Source: a virus (lineage: Duplodnaviria; Caudoviricetes). From it: 38,511 nt of DNA. Both the position numbers and the translations under genes were made by a program. The notes beneath the pieces were generated by a model. That model was not told the DNA's origin. It ran no database searches and saw only the letters and a list, made by a program, of their open reading frames with translations. Where the stretch lies: positions 1-38,511 of the IMG/VR virus record IMGVR_UViG_3300036773_000165, one strand, 5' to 3'. Of this stretch, positions 31,584-37,972 are shown one piece after another (the stretch's first letter is position 1; every line of letters begins with the position of its first letter).

Positions 31584-31774
31584 AGTTGACCTCGTAGACT
31601 CTCGACCATTTCGTCGTACATTTCTTCGAAGTAGAACGTCGCGTATCCCTTGTACCGGCTGTCTTTAAGCCATTCCGGGGCGATGACTCGACGGTTCTGG
31701 TAGACCATCGCGTCCTTGTCCTCAGGTCCAGGCAGGAAGACACGGATGGATAGTTCGACACGTGGGAAGCTCAT
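31580..31774 (-). CDS. Hypothetical protein (64 aa, MSFPRVELSI...)
   Basis: ATGA overlap with the radical SAM stop at 31771-31774. Confidence 0.6.
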   Translation of the reverse strand: MSFPRVELSIRVFLPGPEDKDAMVYQNRRVIAPEWLKDSRYKGYATFYFEEMYDEMVESLRGQL

Positions 31775-34617
31775 GCGGTGACCTCGTCGAGGCAGCGCGG
31801 GCAGTAGTTCTGGTGGTATGGCTGGTCGAGCAGGGTGATGGGGATACCAAGGCCGCAGGTCTGGCAGATCGGGCGGAGGAAGTCCTGCTGGTACCGGTCG
31901 GTGGCGATGAACACCTCGACACGGCGGGCAGGGTGTTCGGCGTAGGGCAGCCAACTGGACTTGCCCATGAGAGCGGCGACGATGTTGTACGGGTTGGGTC
32001 GACCGTGAACGAGCATCCTGATGTGGAGTCGGTGGCCGTCCTGTTTGTGCCAGAGGTCGCTAACGAAGTCTTTGGCGTTGACGGTTTCGCTGCCGGGCGC
32101 GAAGTAGCCGCCTTCGATTTTGAGCCGCATGGGGATGTCCTGCTGCTGGTTCCACCAGGCCAGCCGTTGGGTGACTAGGTCGTAGTCGGCATCGAGTTCA
32201 ACGTCGAACATGGTGAGGTCGACGTCGGCGCGAAGGGTGACGGCGTCGACAGGGTGTCGGATCCACTCCCCTAGCTGCATGCGGTTTTCCAGTGCCGTGT
32301 CCACGTCGTGCAAGAACACGCTGATCTGGTTGTCGGTCATGGGTCGGGTGAAGGCGAACTCGACGTAGTCGGTGCCGGCGGTCCAGTCGCGGTATTTGAC
32401 TTCGTCGGAGGCGAACCGGATGGAGCGTTTCGCGATGCCGTGTTCGAGGCCGAGCTTGGTCTGGGCACGGAAACAGGCGCGGCGGAACAGAAAGCGCCAG
32501 TGATCGTTGCCGACGAAACGTAGAGCTTTGGGCTTGGTGAGTCGTGCTCGGACGCGGACGGCTTTGGAGTGTTGGTCGACGGTGGGCAACGTGGCGAGGT
32601 CAATGTCGACGTCGTTGGCGCGCAGGTAGTTTGCGCGATGCTGCAGGTCGCCGTGGTCGCAGGCTCCGCAGGATTTGCCGTAGCACCGTTCGTTGCAGCG
32701 CATGATCCATTCGGATCCGTGGTACGTGCTGTCGAAGTTGAGATCGTAGCTGTGGCTGTCGGTGTGTTCGACGAATTCGCGCATCTGGACGTATGCCTGC
32801 CACATGAGTTGTGGGTTGACACCGGTGTCGATGAATTCCCAGCCGAACATGTCGTGCAGGTTGCGCTCGTCGAAGCAGTCGGCGTAGCCGTTGTCGAATC
32901 CTCGGGCGATCAGCTTGGTCTCGATGAGGTCTTTGAAAGTGCGGGGTACGCCACCCCAGCAGGCTTGGTCGGCTTCCAACATGGCATCGACGAGGGCCTC
33001 ACCGACATCGCGGCTGGCGCGTTGGCAGAGCTGGAAGAAGGCGAGCTTGTCGGGTTGGCCTTTGGAGCCGAGCTTGAAGTCGATTTTGAGGTCGCGAAAT
33101 TCTTCCCAGACGTCGCCGAGGAGCCGGACGGCTGGCTGGGGCGCGAACCACTGAAAGGGGGTGTTCGCTTCGATCAGCAGAGGCGTCCAGGAGAACTGGA
33201 TCCGGATGGTGGACTGGCCCATGGATTCGCGGATGTCGGCGAGGTCTTTGGCGAGTTTCAGGATGCGGTAGACGTCGCCTTCGTCTTCTCCGGGCAGGTT
33301 GGTGATCATGTAGAGCTTGAATTTGCGGATGCCGGCGCGGATGCCTTTGGTGACGGCTTCTCGAACGTCGGCGTCGGAGGTGCCTTTGCCGAGTAGGTCC
33401 CGCATGCGTTGGCTGCCGCCTTCGACGCCGAGGCTGACGGAGTCCATGCCACCGTGGACTTGCAGGAGGATGAACGTGTTGTCGGCGTTGAAGTCGTCAA
33501 CTCGCATGCTGGGGGCGTCGACCTCGTCGGACACGTTTTCCAGGAGGCTGGAGATGAGCTGCCGGCGCTGGGTGTACATCGGGAGATCGGGGCTGAAAGG
33601 GGCCATGCGAGTGGACCCCATGTTGTCCTGAAGGTTTTTCGCATAGGTCGTGACGTACTCGACTGACCGCTGCCGGTAGGGTTTGCTCTTCCACGCGAGC
33701 GAGCAGAAGCTGCACCAGGCTGGGCAGCCACGTGCTACTTCCAAGTCCCCACTGCCCATTGAAGCATCTGCGTACAGCAGTGGGGGGTTGTCGAGGGGGG
33801 CGACGGCGTTGAGGTCTTTGACGTGGCGTTTGCGGAAGGGCAGGCGCATGCCATCAAGGAGGCTGACGTAACCGCTGACCTGCTTGGACAGGTGGGGGCC
33901 GACGCCGGCGTGATTGCGATCCTCGCTGGTGTAGCGGACTTCTACGAAGCGAGGGAAGTAGAGGAAGTTGAATTCTCTGGCGAGGTCGGCGTAGCAGCTG
34001 AGTCGCTCGGTGTGCCAGCGTCCTTGAGTTTTGAAAGTTGCGATGCGAGCTGTGACGCTGCCGATGCCAGGGTTGCCAGGCTCGTCTTCGCATTCGCCAA
34101 GGAACCAGCAATCGACAACGGGAGCGAGGACTTCGGGGGCTCCGTAGGAGAGTCCTCCGACCATGACCATGGGGGTGGTGTTGGCATCGCGGTCCTTCCA
34201 CCGTGGGGGGATGCCGGACATGGTGAGCATTTTGAGGAAGGACATGGACAGCACGGGGTAGCTGATACTGGTGGCGACGACATCGAAGTCGGTGATGGGG
34301 TGCTTGGATTCGATGCCGAAGATGGGGATGTGATTCTTTTCCAGCAGTTTCATGTCGCCGGGGGTGGCGGGTAGGTAGAAGCGGTCGCATAGGAAGGTGC
34401 TGTCGGCGTCGTGGATGGCTTTGTAGACGGCGGGGATGGATTGGTTGCCGGCGGCGGCTTCGTAGGGCCAGGAGGCCATGAGGCACCAGCGAGCGGTGGC
34501 GGTGTCCCAGTCCCGGCGCATGGAGTTGGGCTCGTCGCCGAGGTATTGGACGGAGAGGTCCATTTTGTGGGCGTTCGAGTTCAGCCAGGACTGGATTCGG
34601 TGCGGAGTGGTGATCAT
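31771..34617 (-). CDS. Radical SAM enzyme (TIGR03960-like) fused to a TIGR03936/DUF2344-like domain and a C-terminal Zn ribbon, 948 aa
   Basis: Start ATG 34617 (ATGA overlap); QYLGDEPNS, FGIESKHPITDFDVV..SISY, EVARGCPAWCSFC (CxxxCxxC), PSMRVD, EGGSQRMR, KLYMI.NLPGE, TPFQW, CNERCYGKSCGAC, RVRARLTK...RFV......FRRA, CQTC...CPRC. Confidence 0.88.
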   Translation of the reverse strand: MITTPHRIQSWLNSNAHKMDLSVQYLGDEPNSMRRDWDTATARWCLMASWPYEAAAGNQSIPAVYKAIHDADSTFLCDRFYLPATPGDMKLLEKNHIPIFGIESKHPITDFDVVATSISYPVLSMSFLKMLTMSGIPPRWKDRDANTTPMVMVGGLSYGAPEVLAPVVDCWFLGECEDEPGNPGIGSVTARIATFKTQGRWHTERLSCYADLAREFNFLYFPRFVEVRYTSEDRNHAGVGPHLSKQVSGYVSLLDGMRLPFRKRHVKDLNAVAPLDNPPLLYADASMGSGDLEVARGCPAWCSFCSLAWKSKPYRQRSVEYVTTYAKNLQDNMGSTRMAPFSPDLPMYTQRRQLISSLLENVSDEVDAPSMRVDDFNADNTFILLQVHGGMDSVSLGVEGGSQRMRDLLGKGTSDADVREAVTKGIRAGIRKFKLYMITNLPGEDEGDVYRILKLAKDLADIRESMGQSTIRIQFSWTPLLIEANTPFQWFAPQPAVRLLGDVWEEFRDLKIDFKLGSKGQPDKLAFFQLCQRASRDVGEALVDAMLEADQACWGGVPRTFKDLIETKLIARGFDNGYADCFDERNLHDMFGWEFIDTGVNPQLMWQAYVQMREFVEHTDSHSYDLNFDSTYHGSEWIMRCNERCYGKSCGACDHGDLQHRANYLRANDVDIDLATLPTVDQHSKAVRVRARLTKPKALRFVGNDHWRFLFRRACFRAQTKLGLEHGIAKRSIRFASDEVKYRDWTAGTDYVEFAFTRPMTDNQISVFLHDVDTALENRMQLGEWIRHPVDAVTLRADVDLTMFDVELDADYDLVTQRLAWWNQQQDIPMRLKIEGGYFAPGSETVNAKDFVSDLWHKQDGHRLHIRMLVHGRPNPYNIVAALMGKSSWLPYAEHPARRVEVFIATDRYQQDFLRPICQTCGLGIPITLLDQPYHQNYCPRCLDEVTA

Positions 34618-35201
34618 GTGTGGATGTCCACGGCGGCGATGTAGCAGTCGTGGAACTGGGTGAGGGTGGTGCGTAGGGTGTTCGGCCAGTCGGGGTCGAC
34701 GACGAAGTCGTTTCCGTCCCAGGTTTCCCGGGCGCGCCAGAGGTCTGGGGCGGCGGCGATGGCGTACGGGGGCTGGAGACGGCTTGGATGGTTGGGATCC
34801 CAGTTGTCTGGCATGTGGACCAGCAGCTTGGTGACGGGGATGACGTCGAGGTCGGGGCGCTTGACCCACTTGGTCGGCCATTTCACAGCGATGCCGGGGC
34901 GGGGGCCGTTGGCGCATCCGTTGCAGGTGTATTCGGGGTGCTCGGCTCGGTGCCTGCGCGCTGGTTCGTCGTCGCGTAGGCCGGTGCCGTGGCAGAGCCA
35001 GCAGGCTTCCTGGTTTGCCGGGTCTTGTTCTGGGTCGTACTCCGACCAGGTTCCGGTCCAGCGGCCACCCAGTTGCCACCAATCCCAATGACCGTTCTCG
35101 TTGTCGTTCTCGTCCCAGGGCTTGAGGACTTCGCCGACGGCTTCGTGTAGTTTGTCGCCGTCATACTTGAACGGCAGGATGACGCCGATGAGGTAGTGCA
35201 T
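34614..35201 (-). CDS. Conserved phage protein with WDWWQLGGRW motif and CxxCxGxG Zn finger (195 aa)
   Basis: MHYLIGVIL...WDWWQLGGRWTG...CWLCHGTG...CNGC...VDIH. Confidence 0.75.
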   Translation of the reverse strand: MHYLIGVILPFKYDGDKLHEAVGEVLKPWDENDNENGHWDWWQLGGRWTGTWSEYDPEQDPANQEACWLCHGTGLRDDEPARRHRAEHPEYTCNGCANGPRPGIAVKWPTKWVKRPDLDVIPVTKLLVHMPDNWDPNHPSRLQPPYAIAAAPDLWRARETWDGNDFVVDPDWPNTLRTTLTQFHDCYIAAVDIHT

Positions 35202-35553: not shown

Positions 35554-36186
35554 TCACAGTCGGGTGACTTGGGTGAGACCGTCGACCTGGTGGATGCGGT
35601 AGACGACGTCGGCGGCTTCCAGGAAGGACTCTTCGTGGGTGACCAGGATGATCTGTACGCCGGTCTTGGTGACGAGGTCTTTGAGGAATTCGATCAGGCG
35701 AGGTAGGTACTCGGCGGAGACGTGGGCGAAGGTCTCGTCGAGGAACAGCACGGTGTCCTGCCGGTTCTTGCTCAGCAGGAGGATGACCAGGCGGAGCAGG
35801 AAGCCGATGACGGCGGCGAGTCCTCCCCCGCGGGCGGCGAGGACGTCGGTGTCGACGGTGGTTCCGTCGTCGAGGGTGGAGCGGACGATGAGGTCCACCA
35901 CTGGCGTCTTAGCCCGCACTCCGGGCACCAGGTGGAAGGACAGTTCGTCTCCGAAGATTGTTTGCAAGCCTTGGGTGACCAGGGTTTCGATGGCTCGTTG
36001 CGCGGCATCTTGTCGCTCCTCGCCGATCGTGGTCAGGATGATGGCCGCCTTTTCATGCAGCTCGATGACCTGGTTGAGCTGCCGAATCTCCTCCAGCAAG
36101 GTCTTGCCTTGATCGGCGAGGGCGAAGGCTTCGCCGCGTTGCCGGTCGACGAGGCGGCGGGCCTGAGCGATGCGGCTCTCAATCAT
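35554..36186 (-). CDS. SbcC/Rad50-like ATPase, C-terminal half as a stand-alone gene (210 aa)
   Basis: ATG 36186 (ATGA overlap); coiled coil, signature RGGG, Walker B LFLDETFAHVS, H-loop QIILVTH; no Walker A. Confidence 0.88.
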   Translation of the reverse strand: MIESRIAQARRLVDRQRGEAFALADQGKTLLEEIRQLNQVIELHEKAAIILTTIGEERQDAAQRAIETLVTQGLQTIFGDELSFHLVPGVRAKTPVVDLIVRSTLDDGTTVDTDVLAARGGGLAAVIGFLLRLVILLLSKNRQDTVLFLDETFAHVSAEYLPRLIEFLKDLVTKTGVQIILVTHEESFLEAADVVYRIHQVDGLTQVTRL

Positions 36187-36392
36187 GTGCTGCTCAGCGC
36201 TTGTAGCGCGTTGCTCACGAGCCGGCGGTGCAGTGCGTTGAGGGCCGAGTCGTAATTCTCGCGCTGGGTGTCGTGTTCCCCGCAACTCTCCACCAGGCGG
36301 GTTGGCAAGTGTAGAAGCCGGACTGAGGGTTTGCCCATCCCGTCGCGGTAGATGTCGACGCGGAGGTCTTCCTCAGCGATCACGATCACCAT
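36183..36392 (-). CDS. Stand-alone class-I release factor domain-3-like mini-protein lacking GGQ (69 aa)
   Basis: EEDLRVDIYR...SVRLLHLPTRLVESC....TQREN...AL..L aligns with RF1/RF2 DLRIDT.R...SAVRITHLPTGIVV.CQ..RSQ..N...A...L. Confidence 0.75.
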   Translation of the reverse strand: MVIVIAEEDLRVDIYRDGMGKPSVRLLHLPTRLVESCGEHDTQRENYDSALNALHRRLVSNALQALSST

Positions 36393-36543
36393 TCTGCTCC
36401 ATCTTGGTCAGGTGCCAGCCGCGGCATCGTGGGCATTTGTAGTAGCGCCGTTCCTGAGGTTCGTTTCCCCGATCGATCCGGAGCAAGGCGATCTTGGCGT
36501 CGAGCAGGGTGCGGTAGCGGACCTTTCCTTCGCAGACTGGCAT
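36373..36543 (-). CDS. Small Zn-binding phage protein (56 aa)
   Basis: Below the ORF-track cutoff: MPVCEGKVRYRTLLDAKIAL...RYYKCPRCRGWHLTK...; TGATG overlap with dnaN; C..K..Y...Y.C..C..WHLT pattern common in actinophages. Confidence 0.75.
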   Translation of the reverse strand: MPVCEGKVRYRTLLDAKIALLRIDRGNEPQERRYYKCPRCRGWHLTKMEQNGDRDR

Positions 36544-37727
36544 CAATGCATCCAGTCACTGAGCATCTGCTGGCACACTCCGACTCCTTTGCTCGACTGG
36601 AGGAGCAACGGGGTGCGGCGGGTTTTGGTGTCGTCGCCGAGGCGGAATGTGAGCTTTTCCTCGCCGTAGGTGCTGATCATGTCGGTCAGGTAGCGGTGGT
36701 TGACCATGACGGTGCGCTGCCCGCGGCCGTTCCAGGTGGCATCGATGGTCTCGGTGGCGGTGTTGCCGTACTTGTCTTTGGCGTGGATCGTCATCTCGTC
36801 AACGTCGAAGTCGAGTGCGATGGCGGAGGACTCGGCGTCGGCGTTGATCCGGATGCGCCGGATGGCGTCAGTGAGTTCGGCACGGTCGCATTCGAGGGTG
36901 TGTCGGTTCTCCAAGGCTGGCCGCAGCATCTGGGCTTCCATGTCGGGGAACTGGGCCTCGAATTTGTTGACGATGAAGATGTCGCTGCCGAATCGGAAGA
37001 TCAGCTTGTCGCTGGACTGGCCTATGTCGATGGTTTCAAGTTCGCTGATCTTGAGGAGGCGGATCAGGTCGTCGACGGCGCTCATGGGGATTCGCAGCTT
37101 GCTGGTGAGGGTGGGGATGTTGACTTGCTGGATGCGTGAGCCGTCGCAGGCGGTGAGTTTGCCGTCGTGGACGTCGATGATGTTGAGGTTGCTACGGGAG
37201 GGGTCGCGGCTGGCCGCGTAGCGGACGGCTTGGATGGCGTCGAGTAGCGGCCGGCGGCCGACGATGGTGAATTCGGCTTCGGTGATGACCGGCATGGCCG
37301 GGTAGTCGTGGCCGCCGGGAAGTTGCAGGGTCCAGGCGGCGCGACCGATGCTGATGCGAGCGGTGGCGCCTTTGACTCGGATGTGGACGTCGGTGTCTTC
37401 GGCGGTTTTGACGACTTCCAGGAGCTTCTTGGCGGGGAAGACGACGATGCCCGGCGTGGTCACGCTGACCATCGGGGTGGAGGCGATGAGGCTCATCTCC
37501 AGGTCGCTGGCGATCACCCGGAGGCGTTGCCGGTCGACCTGAAACTGAAAACACTTCAGGACGGGCATGACATCGCGGACGGGGACGACGGTGATGGCTT
37601 TCTCGAGGAGTACTTGTAGGACGAACTTCTTGATGTCGAAGTTCAGGACTTCGGCGAGTTCGGGTTCAGGGAGGTCGGCCGGGTCGTCGGCCATGATGGA
37701 GGCGAGCAGGTCGCTGACGTTGGACAT
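36543..37727 (-). CDS. dnaN: DNA polymerase III beta sliding clamp
   Basis: 394 aa; PVL..F, ASDLEMS, PAKKLLE, DYP, YAAS.D.SR, ACDG.R, QFPD, VNHRYL.D. Confidence 0.92.
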   Translation of the reverse strand: MSNVSDLLASIMADDPADLPEPELAEVLNFDIKKFVLQVLLEKAITVVPVRDVMPVLKCFQFQVDRQRLRVIASDLEMSLIASTPMVSVTTPGIVVFPAKKLLEVVKTAEDTDVHIRVKGATARISIGRAAWTLQLPGGHDYPAMPVITEAEFTIVGRRPLLDAIQAVRYAASRDPSRSNLNIIDVHDGKLTACDGSRIQQVNIPTLTSKLRIPMSAVDDLIRLLKISELETIDIGQSSDKLIFRFGSDIFIVNKFEAQFPDMEAQMLRPALENRHTLECDRAELTDAIRRIRINADAESSAIALDFDVDEMTIHAKDKYGNTATETIDATWNGRGQRTVMVNHRYLTDMISTYGEEKLTFRLGDDTKTRRTPLLLQSSKGVGVCQQMLSDWMH

Positions 37728-37972
37728 CAGACGCCGATCTCGTCGAGTTTGGTCGAGATGTCGGCGACGATCCCGGCCAGTTCCTCGCGCAGCTGGGTGA
37801 GTAGGGTGGCTGCTTCCTCCACGGTCTCGACGCCGAACTCTCGCTTGAGTTCGTCGCGGGCGGTGTCGTAGGAGGCTTTCGCGGAGTCTCGGGCTCCTTC
37901 GGCGCGCACGCGGTCGCGTTCGGCGGCGCGGAGCTTTTCCTGGAGGGCGACGACGTCTTCAGCGAGGGTCAT
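37727..37972 (-). CDS. Small coiled-coil protein (81 aa), possibly the middle piece of the split SbcC
   Basis: ATG 37972 (ATGA overlap): MTLAEDVVALQEKL...LKREFGVETVEEA..LL..L..EL. Confidence 0.7.
   Translation of the reverse strand: MTLAEDVVALQEKLRAAERDRVRAEGARDSAKASYDTARDELKREFGVETVEEAATLLTQLREELAGIVADISTKLDEIGV

Follow-up and report, generated by a model that had tools for sequence, protein, structure and literature searches.

A phage-encoded release-factor domain 3 without the GGQ loop: a putative member of a widespread, mis-annotated family, with a possible non-catalytic role at the ribosome or tRNA

Bacterial release factors RF1 (PrfA) and RF2 (PrfB) carry the GGQ motif on a loop of domain 3 (PF00472), which is accompanied by domains 1, 2, and 4, and without the GGQ glutamine there is neither peptidyl-tRNA hydrolysis nor a substrate for PrmC. 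Domain 3 also occurs without a codon-reading domain, namely in ArfB/YaeJ, ICT1, and C12orf65 as well as in those phage RF-1 proteins that retain GGQ (phrog_3122-like, such as that of phage WXIN); all of these carry GGQ in a 14-residue loop and end in a C-terminal tail, which in ArfB/YaeJ, ICT1, and C12orf65 is basic and 30–40 residues long. PrfH combines a remnant of the codon domain with GGQ and an rtcB neighbor. An inactive form of the domain has been described in eukaryotes, where, according to passages of a release-factor survey, the bRF-PH domain of the mitochondrial ribosomal protein MRPS35 lacks the catalytic glutamine and serves a non-catalytic role (PMC6514570). The phage protein analyzed here, P0001, shares the fold and sequence core of RF1/RF2 but has neither their GGQ loop nor domains 1, 2, and 4. 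It resembles the ArfB-like proteins in being a domain 3 without a codon-reading domain and in the outer face of helix 7, which is degenerate in the same manner, but possesses neither their GGQ loop nor their tail. Unlike PrfH, it gives no TIGR03072 match and is neighbored by a sliding clamp, a CxxC protein, and half of an SbcC-like protein. Like the MRPS35 domain it has no catalytic glutamine, although MRPS35 is, in the same passages, ICT1-derived, equipped with helical flanking domains, and a fixed ribosomal protein (PMC6514570).

The window, that is, the whole 38,511-nt stretch of DNA analyzed, is a virus record that is 28% complete. Because the capsid protein shares 64% identity with that of Microbacterium phage Magritte, the host is likely an actinobacterium. 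P0001 is a 69-aa open reading frame on the minus strand (36183..36392) comprising the core of RF1/RF2 domain 3 without the GGQ loop, domains 1/2/4, or a basic tail. Codons 17–22 (36327..36344, minus strand) encode a 6-residue turn where RF1/RF2 have the 14-residue GGQ loop, forming the coil between model strands E10-16 and E22-28. The gene sits in a variable slot anchored upstream by a DNA sliding clamp gene (36543..37727, minus strand) and downstream by the C-terminal half of a split SbcC/SMC-like ATPase (phrog_15167; 35554..36186, minus strand), which meets the P0001 stop in an ATGA overlap. Between clamp and P0001 lies a gene for a 57-aa protein with a C-terminal CxxC (phrog_15216; 36373..36546, minus strand), overlapping the P0001 frame by 20 nt. 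A small coiled-coil gene is present upstream of the clamp (37727-37972), the SbcC/SMC-like C-terminal half (35554-36186) is a gene of its own, and this layout recurs in L011 and L012. On reading the sequence, a GGAG word resembling a ribosome-binding site (36397..36400, minus strand) was found 4 nt 5' of the ATG and 7 nt 5' of the GTG of codon 2; given this spacing, translation may start at the GTG instead of the ATG. Neither a promoter-like site nor a minus-strand terminator was found around P0001, and PADLOC returned zero matches among 8 proteins.

The preliminary description had regarded the frame, which overlaps both neighbors, as intact and without signs of decay. This is upheld by the coupled frame, by codon-position GC that matches neighbor genes (GC1/2/3 = 0.68/0.39/0.80), and by the purifying selection detailed below; the residues of P0001 also agree with the translation quoted earlier. 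A pseudogene is ruled out by a dN/dS of ~0.34. An assembly deletion of the GGQ loop was likewise ruled out, as the loops of L133 and P0004 are near-identically short and one contig from sequencing run X1 (depth 21) spans the P0001 stretch gap-free with zero differences, although this run is probably the source sample and hence not an independent confirmation.

Homology to RF1/RF2 domain 3, first proposed from the letters alone, was borne out by several approaches. P0001 matched Pfam RF-1 at an E value of 2.6e-5, a match that does not reach the curated cut-off, and RF1 in the PDB at 2e-4, while the family profile (A6) matched E. coli RF2 at 1.5e-24. The AlphaFold model (pLDDT 94) aligned with RF2/RF1 domain 3 at a TM score of 0.89 in Foldseek and with RF1 at Z 11.2 across 68 residues in VIA-align, followed in rank by double-stranded RNA-binding domains (dsRBDs; Z 7.9-6) and HPF/RaiA (Z 6.8-6). 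The loop between strands 1 and 2 comprises 6 residues (17-22) in P0001 versus 14 in RF1/RF2, so the clean replacement of the GGQ loop by a short turn stands, and so does the absence of an ArfB-like basic tail, with zero K/R among the 11 residues past L58 and a pI of 5.8. Domains 1/2/4 (PCRF) with PxT/SPF are absent from the 69 residues, which have a stop codon and a further gene on either side, and P0001 scored 28.8 bits against NCBIfam TIGR00019/TIGR00020, whose cut-offs are 423 and 370. The dsRBD and HPF/RaiA folds resemble that of P0001 in their three strands and long helix (Z 6-7.9), but identity is 6–17%, P0001 has no dsRBD/HPF Pfam match and is not basic, and the basic surface with which the last helix begins in dsRBD/HPF-type proteins is absent (D41, E45, and Y47 occupy RF basic positions; net charge 0).

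GGQ was absent in 11/11 genuine nearest relatives, which were obtained by searching 1.84 billion representatives and dropping from 15 non-self matches P0002 (a repeat artefact), P0007 (DUF1508 repeats), P0006 (an RF1 with GGQ), and P0012 (an apparently damaged RF1). It was also absent in 7/9 aligned relatives from annotated phage records, including Myrna gp2, Phabba gp2, Acj133p133, and the copies of two further Acinetobacter T4-like phages, and kept in WXIN and one uncultured phage. Loss of GGQ is thus family-wide. Loop length was 5–17 residues in the 37 stand-alone or phage-fused domains that could be parsed, 3 of which had GGQ, and among 19 domains that were not selected by DNA pattern GGQ occurred in 1; because the query and patterns favor short loops, these counts indicate that loop-less forms are common and do not give their share among phage RF-like genes. 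Parse failures (4 phage rows and 7 RF rows) were left out of the loop alignment, and membership of the family excludes loci without a profile match (4/18 viral, 3/20 genome, and 11/60 metagenome loci), frameshifted RF genes, and RF genes with damaged loops. RF1/RF2 fragments and ArfB-like proteins predominated among the best 120 of 757 profile matches. A word-index homologue search with P0001 recovered only P0001 itself, related-locus searches returned nothing with either P0001 or the clamp as query, and one of three viral DNA pattern scans gave 0 matches.

Phage copies of this domain are annotated as 'RF-1 domain peptide chain release factor' or 'putative peptidyl-tRNA hydrolase', and PHROGs files the family as phrog_20323 and phrog_32571, which P0001 matched at E 2.4e-5 and 4.9e-4, respectively, and its relatives at values down to 1e-15. 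The former, bearing the release-factor name, holds Acj133p133 of Acinetobacter phage 133 and T4-like relatives; the latter holds gp2 of Mycobacterium phage Myrna and Phabba gp2. Like P0001, these are stand-alone domain 3 proteins of about 60–80 aa without GGQ and with the same core motifs (HxPxG turn, N-A-L helix), although they are only 27–32% identical to it and have loops of 8–13 residues versus 6, and P0001 is without the helix 7 basic residues; in a 45-column tree, P0001 stood apart from both Acj133p133 and Myrna gp2, with the forks open. With the motif missing, the activity suggested by the database name of phrog_20323 is ruled out. The Atlas clusters are predominantly viral, with 108, 345, and 191 members, no more than 22% of which carry Pfam RF-1. 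The P0001 family is, on sequence grounds, a real but mis-annotated variant of a known domain that is widespread in phages. Two expectations of the preliminary description accordingly find no support: that phage RF-like genes usually retain GGQ, given how common loop-less forms were in these searches, and that the protein is unusual among phages. We also observed phage domain 3 copies that retain GGQ although the loop around it is shorter or altered in sequence, possibly intermediates in loop decay (L019:2956-3486, L023:2901-3113, and P0123), and a sub-type beside RNA ligases in which a Cys/His-rich insert replaces the RSQ turn (L017:2968-3246, L119:488-817, and L119:1407-1637, the last two being two copies in one locus).

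Two sister phages were reached via the SbcC-like gene. One (G001) encodes a GGQ-less copy with an 80-residue extension in the syntenic slot; in the other (G002, 100% complete) the clamp adjoins the SbcC-like half and P0001 has no match, nor does it have one in Magritte. The upstream CxxC gene is missing from this place in both sister phages. A radical SAM protein of ~950 aa (window 31771-34620; Radical_SAM_N2 plus a long C-terminal part) is shared with both of them. Between P0001 and the G001 copy, dN was 0.55 and dS 1.6, a ratio of ~0.34 over 51 codons near saturation, and three neighbor genes had ratios of 0.28, 0.31, and 0.43 with dS of 0.6–0.8. Judging from these few codons near saturation, P0001 is under purifying rather than relaxed selection, much as its neighbors are, and this accessory gene has a greater age than its flanks or undergoes more frequent exchange.

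P0001 keeps R16, R25, Q43, and N46, corresponding to E. coli RF2 R245, R262, Q280, and N283, and has lost the RF2 basic residues R278, K282, K284, and K289 (now D41, E45, Y47, and N52). Among stand-alone/phage copies (n = 33), R245 was kept in 19, R/K262 in 32, R/K278 in 19, Q280 in 18, N283 in 28, and K/R284 in 26, and all six positions were kept in 57–59 of the RF1/RF2 fragments (n = 59; 21 mis-anchored RF rows with loop 21 excluded). In copies inserted into synthetases (n = 8), described below, R/K262, N283, and K/R284 were kept in all 8, R/K278 in 2, and R245 and Q280 in none. The fold residues R262, S279, and N283 are kept in stand-alone copies and inserts alike. The more frequent retention of R245, R278, and Q280 in stand-alone copies than in inserts points to loop-side residues kept beyond the needs of folding, though the control is weak: the 8 inserts may go back to some 3 events, and phage copies were gathered by likeness to P0001. 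Net core charge is about 0–1 in the family and 0 in P0001, and pI ranges from 4.4 to 9.8 (12 members); the best-kept alignment columns are core residues. A metal site at H28/C37/H40 was rejected, with H40 present in 10/33 and C37 in 19/33.

Flanks were examined for about 19 phage-like lineages, of which about 5 place the gene beside RNA-repair genes or tRNAs (a raw count): RlaP in Myrna/Phabba and L118, RNA ligases in L017/L119, a tRNA cluster in the Acinetobacter T4-likes, and a 3'-5' RNase in L147. The remaining lineages, the window included, have no translation or RNA-repair neighbor, and no neighborhood is conserved. Pfam was run on part of the flank proteins (56 and 23), and tRNAs were present in 3/23 and 0/16 loci scanned.

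The loop-less domain also forms fusions with unrelated phage proteins, either preceding or following them, and occurs as tandem or paired copies. A pattern scan of species genomes yielded 20 loci, with in-frame inserts in four GluRS (L034, L035, L047, and L048), five ArgRS (L038, L040, L043, L045, and L049), and one iPGM (L033) of Acidobacteria, five stand-alone copies (Acidimicrobiaceae), two full RF1 with damaged loops, and three without a match. The metagenome scan (60 loci) added nine inserts in GluRS, seven in ArgRS, and five identical ones in lipoamide dehydrogenase (L115, L127, L131, L159, and L162). Inserted domains, from Acidobacteria-type genomes, are about 55–65% identical to RF1/RF2 and occur as one copy per genome checked; no third match beyond RF1 and RF2 was found in 120 other genomes of the class of one such genome (G003), indicating that inserts are rare. 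The ArgRS insert replaces a 21–29-residue acidic loop of four relatives, at which a fifth relative has an unrelated 63-residue insert, and in GluRS a segment of 43–44 residues is expanded to 100. Short acidic repeat-like linkers precede some ArgRS inserts. Since iPGM and lipoamide dehydrogenase also bear the module, we rejected an explanation of the enzyme inserts specific to tRNA. Stand-alone GGQ-less genes of 60–70 aa occur in varied contexts on Acidimicrobiaceae-type chromosomes (L032, L039, L042, L046, L051, L120, L128, L149, L155, and L168), and in the tree such copies group with the synthetase inserts (94/83). Based on its fusion to varied phage proteins and insertion into GluRS, ArgRS, iPGM, and lipoamide dehydrogenase, the module is a mobile, probably repeatedly derived fold. 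In the tree of 83 loop-less cores, the stand-alone group needs 6 label changes, at least 3 of them forced, and a single origin appeared in 0/200 bootstrap trees; several origins are likely, if weakly shown by this sequence comparison, with 45 columns and unsettled bootstrap.

Because the GGQ glutamine is missing, peptide release by P0001 is excluded on the evidence of its sequence, in keeping with the catalytically dead domain first proposed. We tentatively favor a non-catalytic protein that would bind ribosome or tRNA weakly via the surface beside the lost loop. P0001, a domain 3 minus its catalytic loop, may serve as a small accessory phage protein in which R16, R25, Q43, and N46 would continue to contact RNA, at the 50S A site or the tRNA acceptor arm, and this contact would shield or tune translation during infection. 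We draw this reading from the kept residues, the role of RF2 R262 and Q280, the contacts of the loop and helix 7, and the MRPS35 precedent. Part of a preprint reports that RF2 R262C and Q280L alter sensitivity to termination-trapping peptides (bioRxiv 10.1101/2022.12.11.519952), and sections of PMC6742477 state that the catalytic loop begins at residue 245, that the tRNA acceptor arm points to helix 7, and that loop and helix 7 contact 23S rRNA and tRNA. Further support comes from the RF domain 3/dsRBD/HPF-like fold, the dN/dS, and the lineages beside RNA-repair genes or tRNAs. Against weak binding stand the lost basic residues, the core of zero net charge, the pI of 5.8, the mostly RNA-unrelated neighbors, and the presence of the module in iPGM and lipoamide dehydrogenase, enzymes without a tRNA role. 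For nucleic-acid binding, as first suggested, the fold is favorable and the charge unfavorable. Stable blocking of the ribosomal A site is doubtful, since, in portions of PMC3950681, the isolated GGQ domain of YaeJ, with its loop in place, remained 100% in the soluble fraction and did not sediment with ribosomes, YaeJ binding being due to its C-terminal tail.

Ranking close behind weak binding, and possible though somewhat less likely, is that the domain is a stable 55–60-residue scaffold that was acquired from prfA/prfB on several occasions and repurposed for unrelated protein contacts that may differ among phages, without any role in translation. This would account for the fusions to unrelated phage proteins, the tandem copies, the inserts in four unrelated enzymes, and the tree topology, as well as for the best-kept columns being those of the core, the widely varying charge, and the unconserved neighborhood. 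However, R245, R278, and Q280 are retained by a larger share of stand-alone copies than of inserts, and the tree rests on few columns for its many rows. A broader version of the weak-binding idea is rather doubtful: that phages repeatedly made dead RF-domain mimics occupying or shielding the 50S A site or the tRNA acceptor arm, which would constitute a widespread mis-annotated class of translation-control or counter-defense proteins, with the acceptor-side grafts in Acidobacteria GluRS/ArgRS being an RF-derived tRNA-contact domain.

It is unlikely that P0001 is a decoy that blunts defense by engaging a host toxin or sensor recognizing RF domain 3. Such a role would fit the small size of the gene, its accessory character, and its rapid turnover within a variable slot that has it in the window and in G001, with no match in G002 or Magritte, as well as the viral-dominated Atlas clusters, but the loop, the most exposed and conserved feature of the domain, is precisely the part that is lost and free in length, and we know of no defense system that reads RF domain 3. 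Less probable again is a near-neutral passenger, a stable and harmless fold of little effect on fitness. Its absence from two relatives is compatible with this, and the ArgRS inserts, by replacing a variable acidic loop that elsewhere holds an unrelated insert, show that the module can ride along; the dN/dS, the intact coupled frame, and a match in 54 Acinetobacter phage records (3 of these inspected) argue otherwise.

It is quite improbable that P0001 displaces domain 3 of host RF1/RF2 by docking on their domains 2/4, which would shift these factors toward the open form and alter termination or rescue. In closed RF2, according to part of PMC5378476, helix 7 packs against the domain 2 sheet, and such docking would account for the free loop. 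However, helix 7 positions 290/293, which we infer to be the docking face on domain 2, are hydrophobic in 56/57 and small in most RF1/RF2 but degenerate in the phage set (hydrophobic in 13/33, charged in 21/33; A53 and R56 in P0001), a degeneracy that resembles ArfB-like proteins, which have no domain 2, and the intramolecular domain would out-compete a free one. Complex prediction with the family alignment and actinobacterial RF1 domains 2 and 4 scored 0.00 and gave no answer. Least probable is the earlier proposal of a decoy lowering PrmC methylation of host release factors at GGQ, since, despite a fold match to the RF1 chain of the RF1-PrmC complex (TM 0.76), PrmC is described in parts of PMC3152332 as specific for closed full-length RF1 with the GGQ glutamine held in its active site, both of which P0001 is missing.

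We found no description of GGQ-less phage RF domains in the literature searched, most subscription journals lying outside its scope. The main text of the release-factor survey does not contain the word 'phage', and its supplement includes one phage protein, from neither Myrna nor Acinetobacter phages (PMC6514570); in the portions covered of a jumbo-phage review (PMC7824862), PMC9503650, and PMC3014915, release factors figure only in a reference or in another sense. The results correct the annotation of hundreds of phage genes named 'peptide chain release factor' or 'peptidyl-tRNA hydrolase' that lack the catalytic motif, and studies of recoding should not count loop-less copies among the termination or rescue factors of phages. 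The in-frame insertion of the module into housekeeping enzymes of soil bacteria shows RF domain 3 acting as a mobile domain. If the module does bind ribosome or tRNA, it would represent a new and very small phage handle on host translation, and cultured phages with loop-less copies (Myrna, Phabba, and Acj133) make this binding idea testable.
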